From contig CAWEWE010000005.1 in NCBI GenBank assembly GCA_963812745.1, positions 4,813 through 68,812 of the forward strand: a DNA stretch of 64,000 nucleotides. Reading direction: 5' to 3'. Positions 11,196-52,187 of this stretch are shown here, one piece after another. Under the pieces are notes generated by a model. It made no database searches. It saw only the letters and a program-made list of their open reading frames with translations, and was not told where the DNA came from. Within the stretch, counting starts at the first letter, position 1; each line of letters begins with the position of its first letter. The position numbers were made by a program, and so were the translations under genes. Source of the DNA: an uncultured Chloroflexia bacterium. Lineage in GTDB: Bacteria > Chloroflexota > Limnocylindria > Limnocylindrales > CSP1-4.

Positions 11196-13154
11196 CGGCC
11201 GTCCGGAACTTCTTCGGCCACCTGGGCTTCGTGTGGAACAAGAACCTGTTCCGGCTGCTCATCGCCCTGGCGGTGGTCACGGCGCTCATCGCCTCGAGCG
11301 GCACGGTCGCGTTCCTCCAGGACGTGGCCGGCGTCATCGGCGCGGCCCCGGCCTTCGCCCTCCAACTGTCCTTCGCCGCCTTCTACCTGATCATCCAGTT
11401 CGGCTTCCTGTTCTGGTTCCTGTCGCGGCCTCGCAAGTACGTGGTAACACCCGACGACAAGCAGATCGGGATGTCCTTTGCCGACTACCGTGGCCAGCCC
11501 GACCTGCTCGAACACGCCAAGATGACGGTCGGGATCCTCAAGGGCGTCAAGGAATTCGAGTTGCGCGGCGGCGAGATGCCGCGCGGCATGCTCCTCTCGG
11601 GAGCCCCGGGCACCGGCAAGACGTTCCTCGCCGCGGTCATCGCGGCCGAGGCCGAGCTGCCGTTCATCTACATCGACGCGAGCTCGATCCGCGGCATGTT
11701 CTGGGGCATGACCGAGATGATGATCATGAAGCTCTTCCGGGATGCCCGCGGGCTCGGTCGGAAGTACGCCCCACCCGGCCAGCGCGGCGCCTGCATCGTG
11801 TTCATGGACGAGATCGACTCGATCGGCATGAACCGGGGCGGCCAGAGCAGCGGCGGCATGATGATGGGCGGGATGATGATGGGGGGGAGCCAGGGCCTGA
11901 ACACCCTGCTCAACCAGATGGACTCGCTGGCCGGCCTGGTCGAGGATCGCTGGCGGTACAAGCTCCTGCGCTGGTTCGGCCTCGTGCGCGGGCCGGTCAC
12001 CGACAAGCCGTTGGTGTTCATCATCGGAGCGACCAACCGGCCAGAAGTGCTCGATCCGGCACTCATCCGGCCAGGCCGGCTGGACCGGATGATCGTCGTC
12101 CACGAGCCCGACGCCGACGGTCGGCGCGACATCATCGAGCACTACTTGTCGAAGAAGCAGCACGATCCGGACATCCCGATGGACCTGCTGCTGACCGACT
12201 CGATGGGCTGGACCCCGATCATGATCAAGACGATCATCAACGAGGCCCTCATCCATGCCCACCAGGACGGTCGCGAGTTCCTGACCTATAAGGACTGGCT
12301 CGACGCCGCCGACGAGCGGACGATGGGCCTCAAGCAGCCGATCCGATCGTGGAACCTGACCGACCGTCGCGAGACGGCGTACCACGAAGCAGGGCACGCG
12401 GTCGCCGCGCGCTACCTGCGGCCCTCGTACCGCATCTCCAAGGCGACGATCATCCGGCGCGGGCACGCGCTTGGGCTACGTCCAGCAGAAGCCGCTCGAA
12501 GAGCGGACGTCGATGTACGCGCGCTGGATCGAGACCCAGATCATGGTCTCGCTGGCGGGCCACGTGGTGGAGAACAAGTTCCTCGATACGTTGTCGACCG
12601 GACCTTCGAGCGACCTTGCGAGTGCCACGGGCAGCGCGATCCTGTACGTCACCCGGTTCGGCATGGGGCCGACCAAGATCATCGCCCCGCTCCAGCCCAA
12701 TCAGCTGCCGCCCGCGCCGTTCGTGGTCGCGGCGCACGAGATGCTCGACGACCTGTACGCCGAGACCGAGCGACTGCTCCGAGAGAAGGAACCGGCGATC
12801 CACCACCTGGCCAAGGCACTGATCGAGCGCGACGAGCTGATCGGCGAGGAGCTCGAGGAGGTGTTCGCCGAGGTCGAGCGGTCGCATCCCGAGCTGCTCG
12901 ACAAGTTCGAGCGGAAGATCATCCCGTTCCGCGACTTCGCGCCGCACGAGCGCACGAACGGCGAAGGCTGGGTGCCGCCCGCAACGGGGCAGCAGGAAGC
13001 CGCGTCCGACGCGCCGGCGGCAAGTCTGCCAGGCTGGACCCCGCCGGTCCGCGGCTCGTCGCGGGACCGGTCCGGCAGTGCCGATGGCCCGGGCGACGGC
13101 CCGGGCATGCCGACCGACATCGTCCCGCCCTGGGCGATCCCGCCCCGGCACTAG
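11192..13154 (+). CDS. FtsH-family AAA+ ATPase / M41 zinc metalloprotease paralog, with one frameshift
   Basis: Two N-terminal TM helices, Walker A (GAPGTGKT), Walker B (IVFMDEIDS), second region of homology (ATNRPEVLDPALIRPGRLDR) and HEAGHAV zinc motif. A single-base insertion near 12470 is followed by a C-terminal helical domain in the next frame. Confidence 0.75.
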
Positions 13155-35636: not shown

Positions 35637-36742
<1,106 letters not shown>

Positions 36743-36915
36743 GGGCGCAGCCTCCGGCCTGTTCCACCATCGCGGGTCCATGCATCCAGTCGCCGAGGCG
36801 ATGTCCCGCGCGGGAGCGGGACGCGGACGGACCCCGTACGTGGCGACGCAGGGTCTCGCATCGTACGGTCGGGCGGGGTCGGGCGCAACGGTCAAGGAGA
36901 GGTGCCCCGGCTGCG

Positions 36916-37088
36916 CTTGGAACGCCCCATGTTCCAAGCGGCGAAGGAACCGACGAGAACCGGGGTACTTCAAGCCGTCGTTCGCCATTTGGAACCCGTA
37001 GATGTTCCAAATGGCGTCTGGGTGGGTGGAATCGCGCCCCATCTTCGTCAGTTGGAACATCGTGATGTTCCAGCCGCGCCGCTGGAAC
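36916..37088. promoter_or_regulatory. Array of three palindromic operator-like sites (TTGGAAC-N7/8-GTTCCAA) plus a half-site in a divergent intergenic region
   Basis: Full sites at 36916-36938, 36986-37013 (perfect 10-bp arms CATTTGGAAC/GTTCCAAATG) and 37052-37072, with a half-site at 37083-37088. They stand out as AT-rich in GC-rich DNA. Confidence 0.6.
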
Positions 37089-37098
37089 CGTGTTCGCG

Positions 37099-37923
37099 AT
37101 GCCGTCGTACCATCGACCGACGATGGAGCACACGATCGACGTCACCCGCCGCTCGTTCCTGATCCACGCGGGCCGCGGCACGATCGCTCTGGCGGTCCTC
37201 AGCGTCGCAGGTTGTGGTCCGTCCGCCGTGGCCTCGGCACTGCCGTCGGATGGACAGCCGTCCACATCGCCTGAGCCGTCTCCTGGTGAGTCGGGGGCCG
37301 GGGCGTCAAGTCCGCCGCCGTCCGCATCGACTGGCGGCGTGGTTTGGGAGCGCGTAAACCTCGGCTTCGTGTCGGCCTACATCCTCGCCCGCGGAGGCGA
37401 AGCGGCGATCGTGGATACAGGAGTGGCGGGCAAACGCGACGCGATCGGCGATGTCCTGGCCGCGGCGGGCCTCGCCTGGAACGCGGTCGGGCACGTGATC
37501 CTCACCCACAAGCACGGCGACCATGCCGGCAGCATCGCCAGCGTCCTGCAGGCGGCCGCCGACGCGAGCGTCTATGCGGGCGAGGCCGACATCCCGGGCA
37601 TCGATTCGCCCAAGCCGATCACCGCCGTCGCCGATGGCGATACGGTGTTCGGCATGCGGATCGTCGCTACGCCCGGTCACACGGCCGGCCACGTCGCCGT
37701 GCTGGACGAGGGAGCTCGCATCCTGGTCGCCGGCGATGCGCTCGGGACGGTCGGTGGCACGCTCGCCGGCTCGAACCCGTCCTTCACCGAGGATGCCGCG
37801 GCGGCCAACGCGTCGGTGGCCAAGCTGGGCGCGCTCGAATTCGACGTCCTGCTCCCCGGTCATGGCGAGCCGATCCTCGAAGGGGCATCCACCCAGGTCG
37901 CGGCGCTGGCCGCCGCCAGCTGA
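37099..37923 (+). CDS. MBL-fold metallo-hydrolase, Tat-exported lipoprotein
   Basis: Twin-arginine signal RRSFLIHAGRGTIALAVLSVAGC with a lipobox, an HKHGDHAG metal-binding motif, and GH/GD motifs. Confidence 0.7.
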   Translation: MPSYHRPTMEHTIDVTRRSFLIHAGRGTIALAVLSVAGCGPSAVASALPSDGQPSTSPEPSPGESGAGASSPPPSASTGGVVWERVNLGFVSAYILARGGEAAIVDTGVAGKRDAIGDVLAAAGLAWNAVGHVILTHKHGDHAGSIASVLQAAADASVYAGEADIPGIDSPKPITAVADGDTVFGMRIVATPGHTAGHVAVLDEGARILVAGDALGTVGGTLAGSNPSFTEDAAAANASVAKLGALEFDVLLPGHGEPILEGASTQVAALAAAS

Positions 37924-37931
37924 GGAGACGC

Positions 37932-38865
37932 ATGCAGACCCAGCCCGCTCTCCGTGTCGCGCGCGACCGCTTCCACCTCGCCTGGGATCCGGCGATCCCG
38001 GCGATCGAGACCGTCGACGACGGCGCCGTCGTCGAGTTCGACATGCTCGACGCCTCGGGCGGCCAGCTGACCGCGAGCTCGACGGTCGATGACCTCGCGA
38101 AGCTCGACTTCGACCGCGTCGACCAGGTCAACGGGCCGATCGCGGTCCGCGGCGCCGAGCCCGGTGACACGCTCCAGATCGACTTGCTCGAGTTCGAGCC
38201 AGCCGATTGGGGCTGGACCGCGAGCATCCCCGGTTTCGGCCTGCTGGCGGATCAGTTCCCCGATCCGTACCTCCGGATCACGATGCGTGCCGGGTGCCGG
38301 CGAGCGCGCCGAGTTCCTGCCCGGGGTCCGCGTACCGATCGTCCCGTTCTGCGGCGAGGTGGGCGTGGCGCCGGAGACCGGCCCGCGGTCGACCATCCCG
38401 CCCGACCTCCACGGCGGGAACATGGACACGCGCCATCTCATCGCCGGCTCGACGCTGTTCCTGCCCGTGTTCCACGACGGCGCACGGCTGTCGATGGGCG
38501 ACGGCCACGCCGCGCAGGGCGACGGCGAGGTATGCGGCACCGCCATCGAGACACCGATGCGCGCGGTCGTCCGCCTGACCGTGCGCAAGGACCTCCACCT
38601 GACCGGTCCCGAGTTCCTGAGTGCCGACGTCGAGGCGACGCCGACCGGTCGCCGCTACGCGACCGACGGCATCGGCCCGGACCTCAACGGCGCGGCACGC
38701 GATGCCGTGAGCCGGATGATCGACTGGCTCGGGCGCGAGCACGGCCTCGCCCCGATCGACGCCTATCTGCTGACGAGCGTCGCGATCGACCTACGGATCA
38801 GTGAGATCGTCGACATGCCGAACGTCGTCGTCACGGCGCACTGCCCGCTGTCGCTCTTCGATTAG
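37932..38865 (+). CDS. Acetamidase/formamidase family protein (FmdA_AmdA), one frameshift
   Basis: The ATG follows a GAGGAG ribosome-binding site. The two halves sit in different frames, changing near 38290; the C-terminal half carries HGGNMD and DGEVCGTAIE motifs. Confidence 0.65.
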
Positions 38866-38906
38866 GGCGTCGGCGGCCGTCGGGTGACGGCCGCCGTTTT
38901 GTCGGG

Positions 38907-40370
38907 TCAGGTCTCGGTCATCACGTCGCCGACCCGCTCGATGGTCGATGCGCTCCGGGATCGCAGCACGACGTATAGGAGGACGCCGGCGATCATCCAG
39001 ATGGCGACTAGCGGGGGCACCACGTTGTAGGGCGACGCCAGCGGCGTCAGCGGGATGTTCAGGATCGGGATCGTCAACCCACCCAGGACTCCGAGGAATG
39101 CCGGGATCAGCAGGATCACCCCGATGATCGGGATCACAACGTGCTTCAGCACATTGAACTCCGCTCGACCTTCGCCAAGGTAGTAGCCGATAGCCGCGAT
39201 GTTCACCGCGATGTACATCCCGGCGAACAGCAACCCCAGCGAGTAACCGATGAAGATGTAGGTCGTCAGCGGTCCGCCGGTCGTCACGTCCTTGAACAAC
39301 AGACCTAGGCCGACCGCGAGGACGATCCCCAGGATGCCCTGGAGGTGGACCGCGTTGACGGGCGTCCGGTACGACGGGTGGACCTCGGCCAAGGCCGCCG
39401 GCAGGATCCGGGCCCTGCCCAGCGCGAAGATCGCCCTGGTCGACGCATTGGCGCCGGCGTTGGCATTGGCGAGCGAGCTGTTCAGGATCGCGAACGTGAT
39501 CAGCAACGACCCGATGCCCGGCAGCACTTCGTTCGCCATGCCGCCCCACGGATCGCCCTCGTGCGCTGTTAGGAACCCGCTCATGTTTTCCGGTCCGAAG
39601 TAGACCGTCGCCGCGTAGTAGCAGAACACGTAGAAGATGCCGATCAGCAGCGCTGACCAGATGACTGCCTGGCGGATGGTCCGTTTCGGATCACGCGTTT
39701 CCTCGGCCAGCGGGGCTGCCGCCTCGAATCCAACGAAGGCGAGCAGGCAGAAGACCATGCCCTGCAGCGCTGGCAGGAGACCTTGGTCGCCGGGGATGAA
39801 TACGGAGACCGTGTTGCGGGACCCGGCGTTGACGATCAGGAGCAGCGAGATCAGAAGGAAGATGCCGATCTCGATCAGGCCCAGCGCGACGCCGACGCGC
39901 GTCGAGATCGTGATGCCGCGATAGACGAGGAACCAGACGATCAGACCGCAAAGCACGGCCAACGGCAGCCAGAGGAGATCGTTGGTGTACCCGGTGATGG
40001 TCGTGATGAACGCGGCGCCAAACAACCCGAAGGACGCGTACAGAGCGGCCGGAACGATCGGCTCCGCGAGCAGGAACGCCCAGGCCATCAGCCAACCAGC
40101 GAATGAGCCAAGGCCACGGGCGACGTACGTGTACATGCCGCCGGCCGACGGCAGGTGTCGTGCGAGCTCGCCCATCGAGTAGGCGGTGAAGAGCGCAGCG
40201 ACGAGCGCGAGCACGACGGCGAGTGGGGTGATGCCGGCGGCGAATGACGTCGCGGCCCCGATGGACAGCGCCGTGGCGACCGCGGGCGCCATATGGGTGA
40301 TGGACTGGAACAGGACCTCGGTCAGCCCGATCGCGTTGCGCTCGAGACTGGAGTCGGTCGTGGACGCCAC
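38907..40370 (-). CDS. Amino acid/polyamine APC-family permease
   Basis: 487-aa, 12-TM ORF with APC-family consensus (GIFYVFCYYA, an FAEL-like motif). Confidence 0.75.
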   Translation of the reverse strand: MASTTDSSLERNAIGLTEVLFQSITHMAPAVATALSIGAATSFAAGITPLAVVLALVAALFTAYSMGELARHLPSAGGMYTYVARGLGSFAGWLMAWAFLLAEPIVPAALYASFGLFGAAFITTITGYTNDLLWLPLAVLCGLIVWFLVYRGITISTRVGVALGLIEIGIFLLISLLLIVNAGSRNTVSVFIPGDQGLLPALQGMVFCLLAFVGFEAAAPLAEETRDPKRTIRQAVIWSALLIGIFYVFCYYAATVYFGPENMSGFLTAHEGDPWGGMANEVLPGIGSLLITFAILNSSLANANAGANASTRAIFALGRARILPAALAEVHPSYRTPVNAVHLQGILGIVLAVGLGLLFKDVTTGGPLTTYIFIGYSLGLLFAGMYIAVNIAAIGYYLGEGRAEFNVLKHVVIPIIGVILLIPAFLGVLGGLTIPILNIPLTPLASPYNVVPPLVAIWMIAGVLLYVVLRSRSASTIERVGDVMTET

Positions 40371-40436
40371 AGAAGACCCTCCTCTCCCTCAGCCCCCTCC
40401 GTCCCCCTCCGGGCGCCGCTACTATGCCGCCACGCC

Positions 40437-41845
40437 ATGCAGACGGCAATGGAATCCGCGAGATCGATCGACTCGCCACGGCAGGCCGCCGATACCGTGG
40501 CCCGGCTGGCGGGACTCGGTGCCGACGCGCTGTGGGTCGTCTACCACGACTACGCCGGCCTCGGTCGGGCGAAGGCGGTGCCGAAGGGTCGGTTCGAGGA
40601 GGTCGCGCGGGACGGCGTCACCTTCGCGATGGCGAACTGGGACCTCGCGATCACCGATGAGCAGGTCCCGCACCCGGAGTTCGGGGCGGATTCCGGGGAT
40701 TTCCGCGCCGTCCCCGATCCCGCGGCGCTGGTCGCACTCCCGCATCGGCCCGGCGTGGCGCAGGCGTTCGCGAACCTGACCGACGATGCCGGTGTCGCGT
40801 GGCCCGGCGATCCGCGGGCGCTCCTCGCCGCCCAGGTCGAACGCCTGGAGCAGCTCGGCGTCGCTGTGCAGGTGGCCTTCGAGGCGGAGTTCGTGCTGGT
40901 ATCGGGCGCGGACCCGGCGGCGCTCCACGCCGACAGCGGGCGCATGTTCGCTGTCGAGGGGCTCGATGCGCAGTGGCCATTGGGTGCCCGCATCCTGGCC
41001 GATCTCGACGCGACCGGCATCGCCGTCCACCAGTTCGCCAAGGAGTACGGCCCGGGCCAGTTCGAGGTGAGCCTGCTGCCCACGCAGCCCCTGGCCGCCG
41101 CCGACCGGTACCTGCTCGCCCGCCAGCTCATCCGCCGCTGGCGCGGGAGGCCGGCGCGACGGCGTCGTTCATGCCGAAGCCGTACGCCGACCTGCCGGGC
41201 AACGGCCTCCACGTCCACCTCGGGCTGGCTCGTGCCGACGATCCGGGGACCGATCTGATCGCCGATGCTGACGACCCGGACCGGCTCGCCGCGACGGCCG
41301 GGCCGCCGATCGCCGGGCTGCTCGCGCACGCGGCCGGCCAGTCCGCGCTGTCCTCGCCGACACCGAACTCCTACAAGCGGCTGTTGCCGGGCTCGTGGGC
41401 GCCTGCCCATGTGTGCTGGGCGATGGGCAACCGGTCTGCGCTCGTCCGGGTGCCCGGTCGAGGGGCCGGCCGACACCTCGAGGTCCGTGGCGGGGATGCC
41501 GCGATGAACCCGTACCTCCACCTGGCCGGCCTGCTCGCCGCGATCGCCGACGGCGTGGAACGGGAGCTGGAGCTCCCGGCCGAGGCACGCGTCGACGTCG
41601 GCCACCTGAGCGACGACGACGCGCAGGACGCCGGGTTCGCGCGACTGCCGGGCGACCTCGCGGCGGCCCTGGATGCGTTCGAGGCCGACGACGTGTTGGG
41701 GGCGGCCGTCGGATCGATCGTCGCGCGGCACTATGTCGATGTGAAGCGGTTCGAGTGGGCGATGTACCTGGAACGTTCCGGGATGGACGCGGCGTCGACC
41801 GAGGTTTCCGACTGGGAACGCGACACCTACTTCGGATGTCTGTAG
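40437..41845 (+). CDS. Glutamine synthetase family protein (type III/GlnA-like gamma-glutamyl-amine ligase), one frameshift
   Basis: Glutamine synthetase catalytic motifs NSYKRL and GNRSALVRVP. An N-terminal beta-grasp domain lies in an adjacent frame, with the shift near 41145. Confidence 0.7.
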
Positions 41846-42840
41846 CGCCACCGTTCGCGGTCGATCGCCGGCGTGCGCCACCACGGGGCGAGCCCGCACG
41901 CCGCGTGGTCGAGGCGATCTTCCCGGACGCGGATGTCGCGTATGTCCATGGCTGGGCCGCGATCGCCGATGCGTTCGATCGGCTCGAGGACCAACGGCCG
42001 GCGACCTGCGGCGCGTATGCGACGTCGTACCTGCTGGCGCCCCTCGGCTATCGGACCGCGGATGGCGTCGACACCACGCGCGAGGACTACCTGGCCTACC
42101 TCGCCGGCACGGTGATCGAGCAGGACGAGCTCGACGACGTCGGCCGCGTGAAGGCGGCCGCCGAGGCGGCCGGGTTGTCCGACAGCGAGGCGATCGAGCG
42201 CTTTCCGCGGACCTGGTACGGCTGGCCGCTGCGCTCCTCCGACGACGATGCGATCACCGGCACCAGCCCCACCGGCACGGCGCGGGCCATCGCCCTCGGA
42301 TCGGGTGGCGAGCTGGTCACGCTGCCCGTCCCGGCGCGTGACCGTGCGGGCGGCGAGATTCTGACGCCGGGGCGCTTCGACGCGCTGCTCGACCTGATCG
42401 AGACGCATCTCGACGACTGGCAGGTCCATCCCATCGCGAACCTCGAGGTCGATCAGCTCCTGGACGCGACGAGTGACGCGTACGACGCTGAAGCGCTCGC
42501 CTCCGCGGACCCTGCGTCGACGATCCCGCGTGAACGGTGGGGTGTCGGGCATTTCGTCGGGATCGGCGCGTTCTGGCGAGACGGTGCCAGCCGGCGTTGG
42601 GTCCTGCTGCTCGACACGTACAAGGCGCGCGGGTTCAGCGGCTACGTCCCGATGCCGGCCGAGTCGCTTCGTCGGGCGGTCGTGCGCGAGGACGGGCGGA
42701 CGGGCGGCCTGCTGCTCGTGCTCCCCCGAGCCGCACTGGACGCCGCCGGCAAGGCTTTCGCAGACCTCGGCCTCGAGATCAGGATATGGGGCAACGGCAG
42801 CCTTGAACCCGAGGGCTGGGAGTGGTCACTCGGCCGTTGA
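41836..42840 (+). CDS. Phytochelatin-synthase-like (peptidase C83, papain-fold) protein
   Basis: PATCGAYATSYLLAPL parallels PAYCGLASLSMVLNAL; VGHFVGIGAF parallels GHFSPIGGY; VLLLDTYKARGF parallels LILDVARFKY. This is the Cys-His-Asp triad with phytochelatin-synthase-like spacing. The start overlaps the upstream stop by 10 nt. Confidence 0.55.
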   Translation: MSVAPPFAVDRRRAPPRGEPARRVVEAIFPDADVAYVHGWAAIADAFDRLEDQRPATCGAYATSYLLAPLGYRTADGVDTTREDYLAYLAGTVIEQDELDDVGRVKAAAEAAGLSDSEAIERFPRTWYGWPLRSSDDDAITGTSPTGTARAIALGSGGELVTLPVPARDRAGGEILTPGRFDALLDLIETHLDDWQVHPIANLEVDQLLDATSDAYDAEALASADPASTIPRERWGVGHFVGIGAFWRDGASRRWVLLLDTYKARGFSGYVPMPAESLRRAVVREDGRTGGLLLVLPRAALDAAGKAFADLGLEIRIWGNGSLEPEGWEWSLGR

Positions 42841-42852
42841 CGCGAGTGGGCT

Positions 42853-42929
42853 TGGGGTGGCCTATGGGGCTCGAACCCATAACCTTCGGAGCCACAATCC
42901 GATGCTCTGCCGATTGAGCTAAGGCCACC
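42853..42929 (-). tRNA. tRNA-His (anticodon GTG)
   Basis: Manually folded cloverleaf: G-1 paired to discriminator C, acceptor stem GTGGCCT/AGGCCAC, D-stem GCTC/GAGC, anticodon stem TCGGA/TCCGA with loop TTGTGGC, T-loop TTCGAGC, and an encoded CCA. Confidence 0.85.
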
Positions 42930-43066
42930 ACGTGCCCGGGGCAGCGCCGGCTGGCGCCATCAGGCCACGGGGCGAACGGGAGTGTAGCGGAAACACGCGA
43001 TGGGATCGCCCGGGCGTATCGGCGGGTCGAACCTCGTCGAGCCGCGACGGCGTTGCCAGCCGGGAT

Positions 43067-43522
43067 CTATGTCCCCGCCAGTACCGGACAGAGCGGCTCC
43101 AGGTGGCCACGAAGCTCGCCTGTGACCAGATTCACACGCCCGGAGAAGTCATTCAGGCCAGGTTCGAACCCGACCGGTCCTCCGACGCGACCCGAAGCAT
43201 ATGACTCACCTGTCTTGAGGAACGTGTGGAACGGCCCGGAGATCTTGATCGTGACCGTGACGCCGTTCGAGGGATTCGTCATCGTTGCCACGAGTCTCCC
43301 AGTGATGATCTGCTTCACCGGCTCCCCGGCGCTGTCGAAGAAAGTCGTGATGAACTCTTGCTGTACCGGGAACGTCACGACGACGAGGAAGCCGCAGCTC
43401 GTGTCCTCGATGACATCGGGCAATACGAACGGCTCGCGCACCGGCTCATTCGCCAGGGCTGGGCTCGCCATTGTCAGAACCGTCACGAGGCACAACGTCG
43501 CAGAGAGCCAGAGGCGTCGCAT
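43067..43522 (-). CDS. Secreted hypothetical protein
   Basis: Signal peptide MRRLWLSATLCLVTVLTMASPALA. The longer annotated ORF is a run-on. Confidence 0.45.
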   Translation of the reverse strand: MRRLWLSATLCLVTVLTMASPALANEPVREPFVLPDVIEDTSCGFLVVVTFPVQQEFITTFFDSAGEPVKQIITGRLVATMTNPSNGVTVTIKISGPFHTFLKTGESYASGRVGGPVGFEPGLNDFSGRVNLVTGELRGHLEPLCPVLAGT

Positions 43523-43789
43523 CGCCAGTCCTCCTTGTCGGGTCGACCTGTGCGCCCCACAACGGCCGAGGCAACCCGGACATCGACCGTCTGCATCGAG
43601 TCCCCGATCCGGTGCCCAGCATATGCCGCCCCAGTCGCAGGGCAAGCCCTCCGGTGCCGATCGGCACCACAAGGCGCACTGCCGGGTGCGTGTCAAGACG
43701 ACCATGCCCCCGACCGTTTCGACCTCCCAGGTCGGGGCGGGCAGGTGTAGAGTGCGGCTCCCTCCTCTCGCGCGATCCGAGGTGGTCTG

Positions 43790-44710
43790 ATGGCCAAGAA
43801 GCCGACGTCGACCGATCGCAAGGCCAGACATGGCGCAAAAGCTCGCCACGACCGGACGAACGGGACCGGCGATGGGCGTGCGGCTGCCGATGCGTCGGTG
43901 GCGCTCCTCGACGAGCCGCCTGAACGAGCGGCGAAGTCCTTGTCGAACAAGGACTACCTAGCTGAGCTCGCGCGGCTGCAGATCGAGCTCGTCAAGTTGC
44001 AGGAATGGATCCGCCACAAGGGCCTCAAGGTCGTCGTGCTCTTCGAGGGTCGCGACGCGGCCGGCAAGGGTGGCGCGATCAAGCGCATCACCGAGAGCAT
44101 GAGCCCGCGTGTCGCCCGGGTCGTCGCGCTGCCGGCGCCGACCGAGCGCGAGAAGACCGAGTGGTACTTCCAACGCTACGTCGCGCACCTGCCGGCGGCC
44201 GGCGAGATGGTCCTGTTCGATCGCTCCTGGTACAACCGTGCCGGCGTCGAGCGCGTGATGGGCTTCTGCACCGAGAAGGAATATCGCGAGTTCATGCGCT
44301 CGACCCCGGAGTTCGAGCGGATGCTGGTCCGATCCGGCATCAAGCTGATCAAGTACTGGTTCTCGGTCAGTGATGCGGAGCAGGAACGCCGGTTCCGGCA
44401 GCGGATCGAGGATCCTACGCGCCGCTGGAAGCTGAGCCCGATGGACCTCGAGTCACGATCCAAATGGGTCGAGTACTCACGCGCCAAGGATGAGATGTTT
44501 CGCTACACCGACATCACACAGGCCCCCTGGTTCGTCGTGAACTCGGACAACAAGAAGCGCGCGCGGCTCAACGTCATGAGCCATCTGCTCAGCCAGATTT
44601 CGTACAGGGACCTGACCCCGCCGCCGATCAAGCTGCCGCGACGCCAGAAGGACGACGGGTACGTCCGCCCGCCGCTCGCCGACCAGAAGTTCGTCCCCGA
44701 GCTGTTCTAG
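43790..44710 (+). CDS. Polyphosphate kinase 2 family (PPK2)
   Basis: PPK2 fold with Walker A-like GRDAAGKGG and YxxRY, plus an N-terminal basic extension. Confidence 0.8.
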   Translation: MAKKPTSTDRKARHGAKARHDRTNGTGDGRAAADASVALLDEPPERAAKSLSNKDYLAELARLQIELVKLQEWIRHKGLKVVVLFEGRDAAGKGGAIKRITESMSPRVARVVALPAPTEREKTEWYFQRYVAHLPAAGEMVLFDRSWYNRAGVERVMGFCTEKEYREFMRSTPEFERMLVRSGIKLIKYWFSVSDAEQERRFRQRIEDPTRRWKLSPMDLESRSKWVEYSRAKDEMFRYTDITQAPWFVVNSDNKKRARLNVMSHLLSQISYRDLTPPPIKLPRRQKDDGYVRPPLADQKFVPELF

Positions 44711-44723
44711 GGCTCGGTCTTCC

Positions 44724-46232
44724 CTAGACCGGTTCTTCCTGGAAGACCACGTCCCGTTTGCGGCGGATCGCCGGAAGCAATGCGAGCGCCAGTGCGACGG
44801 CTGCCACGATCAGCAGGGCGAGTGAGACCGGCCGGGTCAGGAATGTCGTCGGGTCACCGTGCGAGATGATCAGTGCGCGGCGCATGTGGTTCTCCAGGAG
44901 CGGTCCCAGGACGAACCCGAGCAGGAGCGGTGCCGGTTCTCCGCCGAGCTTGATGAGGACATAGCCCAGGAGGCCGAAGAATGCGATCGCGTAGATGTCG
45001 AACACGTTCTGGTTGATCGAGTACGTCCCGATGCACGCGAACGCCACGATCGCCGGGAACAGCACGCGGTAGGGGACTTTCAGTAGGCGGACCCAGATGC
45101 CGATCAGGGGCAGATTGAGCAGGACGAGGATCAGATTCCCGATCCACATCGAGACGACGAGGCCCCAAAACAGCGCAGGCTCGTCCTCGATGACCTGTGG
45201 GCCGGGCGTGATGCCCTGGATGATGAACGCACCGACCATCAGCGCCATCACGGGGTGGGCGGGTAGCCCGAGTGTCAGCAAAGGGATGAACGACGTCTGC
45301 GCCGCCGCGTTGTTCGCGGCCTCGGGGCCGGCGACACCTTCGATCGCGCCATGGCCGAAGGTCTTCGGTTCCTTCGACACACGCTTTTCGACGCTGTAGG
45401 ACGCGAAGGAGGCGAGCACGTGGCCCGCGCCCGGGAGGACTCCGAGCGCCGACCCGAGGGCCGTGCCGCGCAGGATGGGCGCGACGATGCGGCCAAGATC
45501 GGCCCGTGACGGGAGCAGGTTCGAGACGGAGCGCACGATGACGTCGCGGCCGCGTTCGACCTCGAGGTTGCGCAGGATCTCGGCGATCCCGAACATGCCG
45601 ACCGCGACCGACACGAAGCTGATGCCGCCGTACAGCTCGCGGTTTCCGAACGTGAAGCGTGGGGTGGCCGTGTAGAGGTCCTGACCGACGGTCCCGAACA
45701 GGAGCCCGAGCAGGATCATCGCCAGGGCCTTGATCGTCGAGCCGCGGGCCAACGTGGTGGACGCGATCAGCCCGAGGACGACGAGCGAGAAGAACTCGGC
45801 TGAGCCGAAGCCGAGTGCGATGCTCGCGAGTGCGGGGGCGAACAGGACCAGGACGAGCGTGCCGATCGTGCCCGCGAAGAACGATCCGATCGCCGCCGCG
45901 GCGAGCGCGGGGCCGGCGCGGCCCTGTCGTGCCATCTCGTGGCCGTCGATGGCGGTCACCGCGGACGATGTCTCGCCCGGCATGTTGATGAGGATCGCTG
46001 TGGTCGACCCGCCGTACTGGGCGCCGTAGTAGATGCCGGCGAGCATGATCAACGACGTCACGGGTTCGAACGTGAAGGTGATCGGCAGGAGCATCGCGAT
46101 GGTCGCGGTAGGACCGATCCCGGGGAGGACGCCGACGAGCGTCCCGAGGAATACGCCGACGAAACACCAGAGCAGGTTTTCCGGGCTGAGGGCCGTGGTC
46201 AGCCCGAGGGCGAGGTTCTCGAGGAGATCCAT
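44724..46232 (-). CDS. tctA: Tripartite tricarboxylate transporter permease TctA
   Basis: 502-aa multi-TM TctA family protein. Confidence 0.8.
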   Translation of the reverse strand: MDLLENLALGLTTALSPENLLWCFVGVFLGTLVGVLPGIGPTATIAMLLPITFTFEPVTSLIMLAGIYYGAQYGGSTTAILINMPGETSSAVTAIDGHEMARQGRAGPALAAAAIGSFFAGTIGTLVLVLFAPALASIALGFGSAEFFSLVVLGLIASTTLARGSTIKALAMILLGLLFGTVGQDLYTATPRFTFGNRELYGGISFVSVAVGMFGIAEILRNLEVERGRDVIVRSVSNLLPSRADLGRIVAPILRGTALGSALGVLPGAGHVLASFASYSVEKRVSKEPKTFGHGAIEGVAGPEAANNAAAQTSFIPLLTLGLPAHPVMALMVGAFIIQGITPGPQVIEDEPALFWGLVVSMWIGNLILVLLNLPLIGIWVRLLKVPYRVLFPAIVAFACIGTYSINQNVFDIYAIAFFGLLGYVLIKLGGEPAPLLLGFVLGPLLENHMRRALIISHGDPTTFLTRPVSLALLIVAAVALALALLPAIRRKRDVVFQEEPV

Positions 46233-46241
46233 CGTCGTGCC

Positions 46242-46709
46242 CTAGATCGGGATCCACGGGCCGACGAGCGGCACCCGAACGCTCAGGGCGACCACGAAGA
46301 TCGCTACGCTCAGTACCGTCAAACCGACCGCCAGCAGCACCGCCAAGGGAAGCCTGGTCTCCCGGCTCGCGAGCGATGCCAGCAGCGAGGTCACGAAGAT
46401 GGTCGGGACGAGGCCGAGACCGCGCACCGTCAGCCCGAACACGAGGATGGCCCCGAGGATCAGGCCGGCGGCCCGCCACGGCGGCGCGGTGATCGCTTCG
46501 TCATCCGGCTCGGACGACCGTGTCACGGCGATCAGCACGCCCAGGATCGCGAGCAGGACGCCGACGATCAGTGGGAAGAAACCCGGCCCCATGCGCACGG
46601 GATCGCCGATGTCGTAGGCCAACGCGCCGACCGCGAACGCCAGGCCGAAGCCGACGAAGGTCAGCCCGGCAAGGATGTCCTTCGCGGACCGCTGCATGGG
46701 CACTCTCAC
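46242..46709 (-). CDS. tctB: Tripartite tricarboxylate transporter TctB small subunit
   Basis: 155-aa, 4-TM protein lying between tctC and tctA. Confidence 0.65.
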   Translation of the reverse strand: MRVPMQRSAKDILAGLTFVGFGLAFAVGALAYDIGDPVRMGPGFFPLIVGVLLAILGVLIAVTRSSEPDDEAITAPPWRAAGLILGAILVFGLTVRGLGLVPTIFVTSLLASLASRETRLPLAVLLAVGLTVLSVAIFVVALSVRVPLVGPWIPI

Positions 46710-46794
46710 GGCAACTCGCCTCGCGCGGCTGCCGCCGATACTAGGGCCGGACGACGGGCGTCGCCCGGCCCGAACGCGCTACTACTTGGCGGCG

Positions 46795-47904
46795 TCAGCT
46801 CCCGGCGCCGGCGAGCAGAGGCTTCCAGACGTCGATCTGCTCCTGGAGCTTGGCTGTGTGCGCCTCCGGGGTGGCCTGATCGGCGGCGACCGGCGTGGTC
46901 CCGAGCTCGGCGAACTTGGAGACCACGTTGGCGTCGGTCAATGCCCCCTGGAGGGCCTGCGTCAGCGTCGCAACGACCTCGTCCGGCGTCTCGGCCGGCA
47001 CATACAGCCCGTGCCACACCCTGACCTGGACGTCCGGCAGACCGCCCTCGGTCGTGGTCGGCACGTCGGGCAACGCGTCGATCCGCTCAGGGCTGGTGAT
47101 CGCGTACGCCTTGATGCTGCCAGCCTTGATCTGTGTCGTCGTGTTGGTGGTCTGGTCGCACATGAAATGGACCTGGTTGCCGAGCAGGTCGTCCATCGCG
47201 GGACCAGTGCCCTCGTACTCGACTTCGGTCACGTCCGCGCCGACGGCCTGCTCGATGAGCAGTCCGCACAGGTGGGACGCCGCGCCGATGCCCGCATTGG
47301 CGTAGTTGACCGTCCCCGCGTTGGCCTTGAGGTGGTCGACAAGCTCCTGCAGGGTGTTTGGCGCGAACTCGGTGCCGCCGACGATGGTCATCGGCACCTC
47401 GGTCACAAGGCCGATGGTCTTGAACGACGTCAACGGGTCGTACGGCAGATCCGGATAGAGCGACGGCGCCGTCGACATGCCGATGTGGTGCATCAGCACG
47501 GTGTAGCCGTCCGGATCCGCCTCCGCGACCTGTCCAGCCGCCACTGTGCCACCCGCGCCTGCGACGTTGGTGACGACGATCTGCTGGCCCAGGGTCGCGC
47601 TCATCGGCTCTGCGACCAGCCGCGTCACCGTGTCGGTCGGGCCACCGGCGGCGAACGGGACCACGAACGTGATCGGGCCCGTCGGCTCCCAGGCTGCCAG
47701 GCTCGCCGAGGCGCTGGGTGAAGCGGCATCGGCGCTCGCGGAGGCCGCGGGCGCGCTCGTGGCGGGTGCCGCGGGGGAGCCTGAGCCGGTACCGCACGCG
47801 CCAGCGATCAGCGCGATCGTTGCGAGCCCTGCGATCGATCGAAGCCGGCGTCGAGGTGCCGGACTGGAAGGTTGGATGTCTGCGAACGACACGACCGTGG
47901 TCAT
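46795..47904 (-). CDS. tctC: Tripartite tricarboxylate transporter substrate-binding lipoprotein TctC
   Basis: Lipobox LIAGACG and a Bug/TctC fold. Confidence 0.75.
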   Translation of the reverse strand: MTTVVSFADIQPSSPAPRRRLRSIAGLATIALIAGACGTGSGSPAAPATSAPAASASADAASPSASASLAAWEPTGPITFVVPFAAGGPTDTVTRLVAEPMSATLGQQIVVTNVAGAGGTVAAGQVAEADPDGYTVLMHHIGMSTAPSLYPDLPYDPLTSFKTIGLVTEVPMTIVGGTEFAPNTLQELVDHLKANAGTVNYANAGIGAASHLCGLLIEQAVGADVTEVEYEGTGPAMDDLLGNQVHFMCDQTTNTTTQIKAGSIKAYAITSPERIDALPDVPTTTEGGLPDVQVRVWHGLYVPAETPDEVVATLTQALQGALTDANVVSKFAELGTTPVAADQATPEAHTAKLQEQIDVWKPLLAGAGS

Positions 47905-48079
47905 GGTTCACCTCCATATGGCGAGGCCGCCACTCCTCCTGACCTGGGTCGAGCCTACCATCCAAGGCTTCGCCGAAGCCTTTCGACTTCCTTACGGATC
48001 GGGCCACGACGAACGACGACCGCGCCGTCCGGCGCGGTCGTCAGGTTCCGTTGTCGGGGCGGCTCGATGGCCGCCGCCG

Positions 48080-49200
48080 TCACTCCGAGTCGGGTCGGTT
48101 CTCCGAGCCGGCGTGCGTCGGCGCCGTCCACGGTGCGACGGACCGCAGGAGGCGGACCGCGGCGCTGGTGTGGTCGATCGTCGCGGCGACATGCTCACGA
48201 TCCGGCTCGGGCTCCGGCGTCGGGGAGGGCCAGGTCTGGTCGGCCGTCGCCGCTGGATCCATGACCGGTACCGGCTCGGTGGTCGTGCCGGACGCTTCGT
48301 CGGTGACGGTGGCTGCGGGCGACTCGATCGCCGTCATCCCGTCGCCCTCGCCGGTGCCGTTCGTCGCGTCGACGTCCGCCGTCGGCAGAACGAACGCCGC
48401 CGCCGGCGACTCGGCGTCGGCGACCACGTCGGCGGGCTCGACCGGCGGATCGTTCGGACTGTCGTCGATGACGACGGCCTCCGCGACGGCTGCGGTCTCG
48501 GCCGCAGCCTCGGTCGCGACCGCGGCCTGGCGTCCGGCTCGGCCGGCTGCTCCGGCTCGGCCGGCTGCTCCGGCTCGACGAACATCGCAACGGCGCTGGC
48601 CCTGGCCGTGGCACGGACCTGGTCGAGATCGGGCCCCGCCGGCAGTGCCTCGGCGCGGGCCACGATGGCGGCCGGGTCGCCTGCCTCGGAAAGCTCAGCG
48701 AAGAATCGATCGAGCGTCGTGCCGTAGTCGGCCACGGCCGCGTCGACGCCTTCGATCTCCTTCTCGATGATCGCATCGTGCTGCCTGAGGTAGTCGTCGA
48801 GGCTGGAGCGGCGGTCGGCGATCCGCTGGTCCGCTTCGGAGCGGACGCGATCCACCTCGCTCTTCGCCCATTCCTCGATGTGGTCGACGTCTTCCTCGGC
48901 GAGCCGCTTCAGCTCCTCGGTCTCGATCGCGGCGCGTGCGCGGACCTTGTCGATGTGCGCGGCCGCGTCGTCGGCGACACGGGCCGCGATCGTCTCGCGC
49001 TCACGCTCGGCGGTGGCGCGCATCGCGTTGGCAAGCTCGGACAGGAAACCTGGCCGTAGCCCGCCGCTGTCGATGCGGTGCGGCTGCTCGGCGGTAGGCG
49101 GATCGGCCTCGGTCACCCCGGGCGATTCCGTCGTCCCGACCACCGACGTGCCATTGACATGACTCGCTTCCGGGATCATCGGATCGTCGTTCTGGTCCAT
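48080..49200 (-). CDS. Hypothetical alpha-helical/coiled-coil protein with acidic Pro/Glu-rich C-terminal tail (paralog A), one frameshift
   Basis: Starts at MDQNDD. A conserved roughly 170-aa helical core is shared with the gene at 52281-53192. An 18-bp tandem repeat (EPEQPA x2) sits at the frameshift near 48545. Confidence 0.5.
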
Positions 49201-52031: not shown

Positions 52032-52187
52032 TTTGGAACGTGACATGTTACGAACGGGGGCTGAGCGGCCGAAGAGCGAGTCAACTTGCCCGCCCAGTCG
52101 TGGTATGGAACATGTGCAGGTTCCAAACGACGAAGGAGAGGCCGATCAAGGCGATCTCCTTCGTCGGACGTAACGCGTGATGTTCCA
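52032..52187. promoter_or_regulatory. Second array of the TGGAAC-N7/8-GTTCCA palindromic operator-like sites
   Basis: Sites at 52032-52054 (TTTGGAAC-N7-GTTACGAA), 52104-52127 (TATGGAAC-N8-GTTCCAAA) and 52169-52187 (CGTAAC-N7-GTTCCA), upstream of the SDR gene. Confidence 0.55.

Follow-up and report, generated by a model that had tools for sequence, protein, structure and literature searches.

The window analysed here is a stretch of 64,000 nt from an uncultured Chloroflexia bacterium (CSP1-4, Limnocylindrales; contig CAWEWE010000005.1 of assembly GCA_963812745.1, positions 4,813-68,812, forward strand), in which a gene of the Pfam family DUF6885 overlaps the end of a gene for a glutamine synthetase (GS)-like ligase. 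The DUF6885 protein is predicted to adopt a papain-like fold with conserved catalytic residues, the ligase has an altered ammonium site, and the two genes are found together in several phyla. They constitute a real and conserved module, the probable logic of which is ordinary, namely gamma-glutamylation, and the second component of which is an uncharacterised papain-fold family. We favour the reading that DUF6885 is a thiol amidohydrolase or transferase whose substrates are gamma-glutamylated amines, similar to PuuD in function but built on another fold, and assign to it a rough probability of 0.45.

Many microbes use gamma-glutamylation to detoxify and take up into metabolism a range of amines, among them putrescine, ethanolamine, methylamine, isopropylamine and aniline. 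To our knowledge, in many organisms, haloarchaea included, only the ligase step has been identified. If the favoured reading is true, a conserved non-homologous thiol hydrolase partner would help to fill the missing step after the ligase, and a Pfam domain of unknown function (DUF) would gain a role that represents a new activity within the papain-like superfamily. One carrier of the module is a haloarchaeon in culture, Salinarchaeum sp. IM2453, which makes the hypothesis directly testable. The features of the pair in the window are as follows:

40437..41845, plus strand: GS-like ligase gene of the gamma-glutamyl-amine type, 469 aa after repair, with Gln-synt_C and Gln-synt_N_2 domains; frame broken in the window
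41396..41398, plus strand: Trp codon in PGSWAP, at the Glu327 "flap" position of true glutamine synthetase (PGYEAP)
41836..42840, plus strand: DUF6885 gene, 334 aa, predicted cytoplasmic papain-fold Cys-His-Asp protein (PF21819, E 2.8e-40; AlphaFold2 model)
41836..41845, plus strand: the 10 nt ATGTCTGTAG shared by the end of the ligase gene and the start of the DUF6885 gene

The overlap had already been recognised in the preliminary description of this locus and is indeed there, with the ATG at 41836 lying over the TAG at 41843-41845. Alignment coordinates point to an overlap of the same length in 13 orthologous loci, and the N-terminal residues 1-23 of the DUF6885 protein are conserved in the protein alignment of close homologues.

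The ligase and its linkage to DUF6885

The preliminary description took the upstream gene for a GS-family gamma-glutamyl ligase and quoted the motifs NSYKRL and GNRSALVRVP, both of which are found. The assignment agrees with the non-ammonia GS-like signature set out below and applies to the gene as repaired, the reading frame being interrupted in the window. The repaired protein matches Pfam Gln-synt_C at 3.8e-86, in addition to Gln-synt_N_2, and scores under every NCBIfam equivalog cut-off. Its best NCBIfam match is GGputSyn (gamma-glutamylputrescine synthetase, NF045547), with 307.7 bits against a cut-off of 650. It reaches 228 bits on the GlnA type I model (TIGR00653, cut-off 429) and 248 bits on the type III GS model (TIGR03105, cut-off 470), and its identity as a true GS or a type III GS was dropped on these scores. 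The best solved relatives are GSI-alpha enzymes, the glutamate-methylamine ligase 9qur and PA5508 (4hpp).

Eleven DUF6885-linked ligases were aligned to E. coli GlnA, and the flap region was cross-checked with the PDB alignment 8ool. The metal, ATP and glutamate motifs are kept (E-x-E-F, E..GQ.E, G.H.H, the R in NSYKRL, NR...R.P and E.R), but the FDGSS loop bearing Asp50 and Ser53 is deleted in 11/11, and the flap residue Glu327 is replaced by Trp, again in all of them (PGSWAP, PHRWSA, PGLWAP). Because the catalytic motifs persist next to these two changes, the ligase, as far as its sequence can tell, most probably glutamylates an amine other than ammonia. The methylamine ligase 9qur likewise has a Trp at the flap position (TWAP). 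The window ligase shares with 9qur and with Haloferax mediterranei GlnA-2 the Gln-synt_C domain and the absence of D50 and E327, and for GlnA-2 a glutamate-putrescine ligase activity has been measured (PMC8394153). The window ligase reaches only 308 bits on GGputSyn, so that the likeness does not fix its amine substrate. The DUF6885-linked ligase of Salinarchaeum scores 605 bits on the same model (cut-off 650). The Haloferax glnA-2 neighbourhood, as described, consists of transporters, with no mention of DUF6885 (PMC8394153).

The linkage of the two genes was followed in a Chloroflexota set of 19 genome loci, all from Limnocylindrales/Chloroflexota metagenome-assembled genomes (MAGs), and in a more distant context formed by the neighbourhoods of 12 single proteins. 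The ligase lies directly upstream of DUF6885 in 16 of the 19 Chloroflexota loci; one of the remaining loci is uninformative, and in two the ligase stands 3 kb off in a divergent cluster. The conserved synteny in this group runs from an ABC-ATPase (minus strand) through a metallo-beta-lactamase (MBL)-fold protein (plus), FmdA/AmdA (plus) and an APC permease (minus) to the ligase (plus) and DUF6885 (plus). The more distant loci with a ligase are listed here, with short-chain dehydrogenase/reductase abbreviated as SDR:

L020, L022/L023 and L024 (Solirubrobacteraceae/Actinomycetota type, 25-30% identity): DUF6885, then ligase, then M20 peptidase, with a 4-nt overlap in 2/3
L025: ligase, then DUF6885, then M20
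L026: APC permease and SDR, then ligase, then DUF6885
L028: ligase, then DUF6885
L018 (335-7977; 41% identity): APC permease, ligase, SDR, GntR/FCD regulator and CN-hydrolase, divergent from DUF6885 and a class-V aminotransferase
L029 (1-10193; Logan SRR22388066_10281): P0162, a DUF6885 homologue that retains its catalytic residues, encoded in a microcompartment operon whose first gene is GS-like
L032 (6679-10449; Salinarchaeum sp. IM2453, CP081183.1 at 2,486,833-2,490,603, the cultivated haloarchaeon): ligase, then DUF6885, then M20, all overlapping

The partnership noted in the window recurs in the majority of informative loci, namely in soil Chloroflexota, at Actinomycetota-type loci, in Salinarchaeum and in the microcompartment operon of L029. 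Given that GS-like genes are few per genome and that the pair occurs in many independent lineages and in both gene orders, we infer that its adjacency lies far beyond chance. Across phyla, the linkage to a non-ammonia GS-like ligase is strongly conserved, and a shared pathway is therefore well founded. The second amidase of the cluster changes with lineage, being FmdA/AmdA together with the MBL-fold protein in the window, M20D or M20A elsewhere and a CN-hydrolase in L018.

Two of the distant loci show the pair in unusual company. In L029, the GS-like gene is followed by PduL, three bacterial microcompartment shell genes, an aldehyde dehydrogenase, a PduS/RnfC-like gene, four EutN genes, DUF6885, acetate kinase and an ornithine-cyclodeaminase-like gene, with a GntR/FCD regulator nearby; the whole may be an uncharacterised amine-degrading metabolosome. 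To judge from its gene content, the L018 island may also hold a transamination/omega-amidase route for glutamyl compounds. The CN-hydrolase in the divergent arm of L018 is Nit1-like and obtains 248 bits on the deaminated-glutathione amidase model, the cut-off of which is 355.

Family, fold and catalytic residues of the DUF6885 protein

The 334-aa protein matches Pfam DUF6885 (PF21819) with an E of 2.8e-40 and 138.5 bits against a cut-off of 27, over residues 39-318 and profile positions 3-250 of 251. No second Pfam match was obtained at E<=1, and no NCBIfam match. Of 77 diverse family members (21-51% identity), 76 match PF21819. One member of the set hits Peptidase_C39 at 0.025. The family is rare, with 160 clusters among 1.84 billion representatives at E<=1e-3, and 156 close homologues of the window protein were collected.

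The protein had been described as phytochelatin-synthase-like, a claim that has fared differently at the levels of sequence and of structure. The phytochelatin synthase (PCS) profile PF05023 is matched neither by the window protein at E<=1 nor by any of the 77 members at E<=10, and a search of PDB sequences with the DUF6885 profile gave nothing significant. When the diverse DUF6885 alignment was compared by hhalign with Nostoc Alr0975 and AtPCS1, the probability was 1% (E 0.052), with His aligned to His and Asp out of register. The only validation of the AtPCS1 sequence used is its 1e-33 match to Alr0975. Membership of the phytochelatin synthase family (PF05023 / MEROPS C83) is ruled out by these hidden Markov model (HMM), hhalign and PDB sequence searches, and because none of them finds a similarity, DUF6885 is by sequence not a phytochelatin synthase.

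At the level of structure, an AlphaFold2 model of the window protein, built with 22 homologues, has a mean predicted local distance difference test score (pLDDT) of 92 and a predicted template-modelling score of 0.91. In a Foldseek search of the PDB its first match is Alr0975 (6tho_A, E 5.3e-5, probability 1.00), with a template-modelling (TM) score of 0.60 by target and 14% identity, further matches being Pd_dinase, bleomycin hydrolase, staphopain and cathepsins. A second AlphaFold2 model, of the Solirubrobacteraceae-type subfamily (29% identical to the window protein, pLDDT 96.4), again has Alr0975 first (E 1.8e-4, probability 1.00, TM 0.59), with staphopain nearly tied (E 2.1e-4, TM 0.54). 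As modelled, DUF6885 has a papain-like fold (clan CA), and the preference of the models for PCS over staphopain or cathepsins is slight. The term "PCS-like" therefore designates the solved neighbour that is nearest, by a slight margin, within the papain superfamily and carries no family membership.

The codons of the predicted catalytic residues are located as follows:

41992..41994, plus strand: Gln53, predicted oxyanion-hole residue (motif DQRPATCG), at least 90% conserved in 77 members
42007..42009, plus strand: Cys58, predicted nucleophile, first residue of helix 58-70
42550..42552, plus strand: His239, opening strand 238-248, invariant in the family
42613..42615, plus strand: Asp260, closing the next strand, 254-260

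A Cys-His-Asp triad with an upstream Gln is thus present in papain order (Q53, C58, H239, D260). His239 is invariant across the 77 members, while Gln53, Cys58, Gly59, Asn202 and Asp260 are at least 90% conserved, the exceptions being visibly garbled sequences. The sequence blocks in which the triad had been recognised, PATCGAYATSYLL (residues 55-67), GHFVGIGAF (238-246) and LLLDTYKARGF (257-267), are all found in the protein, and the structural intuition of the preliminary description was right at the level of fold and triad. With Alr0975, the "primitive phytochelatin synthase" of Nostoc (C83, PF05023), the family shares the papain fold, the Gln...Cys arrangement at a helix N-terminus, and His and Asp on consecutive strands. 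On the other hand, DUF6885 proteins lack detectable sequence or profile similarity to it, are 60-110 residues longer, carry about 68 extra residues between Cys and His, and possess conserved motifs of their own (GTS, WxVGHF, RxDGREGG, WDNGSP).

PCS enzymes act on gamma-glutamyl peptides via a thioester acyl-enzyme, and a functional analogue of them would be a transpeptidase that passes on gamma-glutamyl-X from such an intermediate, to make gamma-glutamyl oligomers or a thiol/peptide metabolite that M20 peptidases would trim. The top rank of Alr0975 for two independent models, the parallel local motifs (Q-x-x-P-A-x-C-G, GH-hydrophobic, hydrophobic-D) and the recurrence of M20 peptidases beside the pair would fit such an activity. 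It is nevertheless an improbable one, as the two families show no similarity of sequence profile, the structural score of staphopain is almost equal, and many of the contexts look catabolic, containing permeases, SDRs, regulators of the GntR/FCD type and a microcompartment that includes aldehyde dehydrogenase, PduL and acetate kinase. We know of no linkage of PCS to GS-like ligases.

The fold also leaves room for a protein target, in that DUF6885 could process, deamidate or cross-link the ligase or some other protein, much as transglutaminases or deubiquitinase-like papain-fold enzymes do, and thereby regulate the ligase. Papain-fold families include transglutaminases, deamidases and peptidases, as listed in a survey of the superfamily (PMC10318531), and the tight gene overlap is compatible with stoichiometric partners. 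However, there is no evidence of a target tag or processing site, and the metabolic amidases, permeases and metabolosome point to small-molecule chemistry, so that we regard this explanation as very improbable.

A proposed role in gamma-glutamylation

In E. coli PuuA/PuuD, Ipu, Pau and Streptomyces GlnA2-4, genes for a transporter, catabolic enzymes and a Cys-dependent hydrolase are grouped with that of a GS-like ligase from which the ammonium-site residues are missing, a composition shared with the clusters described here. The logic proposed as common to such systems is to glutamylate, to modify and to de-glutamylate (PMC8394153). A PuuA/PuuD-like cycle with a different hydrolase fold had been suggested for the window, and both the papain fold and the conserved ligase linkage are in accordance with it. 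It does not follow from the likeness to PCS, because PCS cleaves after Cys, and the PuuD-like role rests instead on gene context. Hydrolases of the PuuD type are built on the class-I glutamine-amidotransferase fold and use a Cys-His-Glu triad. DUF6885, with its papain fold and without a Pfam match to GATase or Peptidase_C26, can be only a functional analogue of PuuD. Among the annotated neighbours at DUF6885 loci, no class-I amidotransferase (PuuD-type) hydrolase was found. The window system departs from PuuA/PuuD in two further respects, in that its ligase remains under the equivalog cut-off (308 vs 650 bits) and its cluster is without an oxidase or aldehyde dehydrogenase.

A precedent for a cycle of ligase and thiol amidase on polyamine conjugates is offered by glutathionylspermidine synthetase/amidase (GspSA), in which a carboxylate-amine ligase is combined with a Cys-His amidase of papain-like (CHAP) type, and the bond formed by the former is hydrolysed by the latter. 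Unlike the pair studied here, GspSA has an ATP-grasp ligase, fuses both activities in one protein, uses a CHAP amidase and acts on a Gly-spermidine bond.

According to the favoured reading, the GS-like ligase would join, in an ATP-dependent manner, the gamma-carboxyl of glutamate to an imported non-ammonia amine. Cys58 of DUF6885 would then attack the amide carbonyl of the gamma-glutamylated compound, with His239 and Asp260 activating the thiol and Gln53 stabilising the oxyanion. The resulting thioester intermediate could be resolved by water, releasing glutamate and the (possibly modified) amine, and its resolution by an acceptor amine is likewise conceivable. Substrate specificity would be set by import through the APC permease and by the lineage-specific second amidase. 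DUF6885 would in this way fill the role that PuuD (or IpuF) has in known gamma-glutamylation pathways. As DUF6885 and the ligase are the invariant pair and the amidase varies, it seems that DUF6885 handles the glutamyl part and the variable amidase the substrate-specific part. The substrate, the bond to be cut and the order of the steps are the presumptive elements of this scheme.

The order of the steps could also be the reverse. DUF6885 might act upstream of the ligase, as an amidase or peptidase: it would cleave an amide or peptide brought into the cell, so as to release the amine (or glutamate), and the product would be gamma-glutamylated afterwards. The modelled papain-type hydrolase fold would suit such a function, the clusters carry transporters and look catabolic, and a similar logic has been proposed for FluG-type proteins, in which an amidohydrolase is fused to a gamma-glutamyl ligase. 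We consider this order unlikely, given that the lineage-variable amidase (FmdA/AmdA, M20 or CN-hydrolase) is better suited to a substrate-specific role, and that DUF6885 is the invariant partner in very different contexts.

Several observations weigh against de-glutamylation by DUF6885. The resemblance to PCS does not predict which bond is cut, since PCS enzymes cut the bond after Cys in gamma-Glu-Cys-Gly (Cys-Gly) and not a gamma-glutamyl amide. The catalytic residues have been placed as in a papain-like enzyme from the secondary-structure elements of the model rather than from coordinates. No oxidoreductase is encoded in the smallest operons, which have three genes (ligase, DUF6885, M20), and direct hydrolysis of the ligase product would therefore waste ATP unless it were regulated. 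In L018, the aminotransferase and the Nit-like amidase could remove the glutamyl group by another way. In addition, the L027/L033 subfamily (38% identity to the window protein) is the only informative exception to the ligase linkage, a GS-like gene being absent from the 8 kb upstream; there (L033 327-9727, and L027) DUF6885 comes after SDRs, glycine-cleavage P-protein subunits, an NAD-kinase-like gene and an aminotransferase, with M20 flanking. Finally, neither DUF6885 nor PF21819 is mentioned in the literature searched, which likewise yielded nothing on "phytochelatin synthase-like" in combination with "glutamine synthetase". The search included a 2023 survey of the papain superfamily, which lists other DUFs and in which the search for DUF6885 gave nothing (PMC10318531).

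In a wider perspective, DUF6885 might represent an unrecognised class of thiol enzymes for gamma-glutamyl-amine chemistry. Together with the ligase it would form an ancient mobile module of Bacteria and Archaea, in which it either replaces PuuD in new amine-catabolic pathways, one of them in a microcompartment, or works as a PCS-like transpeptidase making a gamma-glutamyl metabolite. This view is tentative, and the chances are rather against it.

Neighbouring genes, regulation and frameshifts

The G+C content of the window is about 70%, and its nearest relatives are Candidatus Limnocylindrales / Chloroflexota MAGs. The remaining features around the pair are listed below:

37090-37923, plus strand: MBL-fold protein gene, with a twin-arginine TRRSFL, then a lipobox-like LSVAGC and a Pro/Ser-rich linker
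37932..38865, plus strand: FmdA_AmdA-family amidase gene, which takes the place of the variable "second amidase" here and in the window has an insertion (+1) at 38284
38907..40370, minus strand: divergent APC-family permease gene with an AA_permease_2 match, syntenic with the pair in Limnocylindrales
40420..40425, plus strand: TACTAT, a -10-like hexamer, invariant in 11 orthologous intergenic regions, 11 nt before the ligase ATG
41133..41140, plus strand: site of the -1 frameshift in the ligase, window ATCCGC-CGCTGG vs ATCCGCACGCTGG in a 99.5%-identical contig, encoding LIRTLAREAG
42853-42928, minus strand: tRNA-His gene, downstream of DUF6885

The pair had been placed beside a formamidase, a Tat-exported MBL hydrolase and an APC permease. 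The permease is present, as it is in the more distant loci L018 and L026, and the MBL-fold protein carries both TRRSFL and a lipobox; it is probably, to judge from these signals, a lipoprotein that is exported, in contrast to the ligase and DUF6885, which are cytoplasmic. The formamidase has to be reduced to its family, as the FmdA_AmdA protein scores 135 bits where the NCBIfam formamidase model requires 500, and its gene is frame-broken at 38284.

The pair was also said to lie under a palindromic operator array, which the sequence does not support. The TGGAAC-N8-GTTCCA array, formed by two exact palindromes and related half-sites, occupies 36918-37072 between the ABC-ATPase and MBL genes, ahead of the MBL/amidase operon and 3.3 kb from the ligase. 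Between the array and the ligase lie the opposite-strand permease gene and a terminator-like hairpin (38871-38896) 3' of the amidase gene. The 66-nt region upstream of the ligase, which bears the permease Shine-Dalgarno on the other strand, has no TGGAAC-N8-GTTCCA site. Control of ligase-DUF6885 by the array was rejected on this ground, and a shared control is unsupported because the array fronts a different operon. The TACTAT hexamer is the probable promoter of the ligase-DUF6885 operon. The palindrome occurs elsewhere in the window as an exact copy at 52106-52125 and as a copy with one mismatch at 11234-11253. Overall, the window has 5 palindrome matches, vs 0.9 expected by chance.

The span of the ligase, 40437-41845, measures 1409 nt and is not divisible by 3, the frame switching at about 41135/41136 (LIR|...LAREAGATASF). 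A base-by-base comparison with L031 (ENA ERZ25039588:contig_23150), the same locus at 99.5% identity to the window, locates one missing A at 41135/41136 and an extra T at 38284 that breaks the FmdA/AmdA gene. The additional base in the ligase, and with it an intact 469-aa protein, is found in 16/16 orthologous loci and in L031, where the amidase is intact as well (310 aa) and the MBL gene carries an extra base of its own. Over 35906-48833 the window and L031 differ by 53 substitutions, mostly synonymous, and 7 indel events, which hit the ligase and amidase in the window and the MBL gene in L031. The synonymous to non-synonymous counts are 10:2 for the ligase, 4:1 for DUF6885, 4:0 for the permease and 12:1 for the amidase, and since the differences are overwhelmingly synonymous, these four genes are under purifying selection. 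Scattered frame breaks also affect other genes of related long-read MAGs.

Taken literally, the -1 frameshift in the ligase and the +1 in the amidase would mean that the module is decaying in the source genome, with DUF6885 left as an orphan there. We give this little chance, as both genes are intact in L031, which in turn has an indel of its own in MBL, frameshifts are scattered over other genes in related long-read MAGs, and the substitutions are overwhelmingly synonymous, a pattern that fits assembly error. The pattern is typical of long-read MAG assemblies, and the indels in the window most likely arose during assembly or, if real, only very recently.

Beyond the tRNA-His gene, at 43790-47904, the window encodes a PPK2 polyphosphate kinase (386 bits, over the cut-off) and a TctABC tripartite tricarboxylate transporter. 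These genes lie outside the module; TctA is kept in L001, and PPK2 in L002 and L004.

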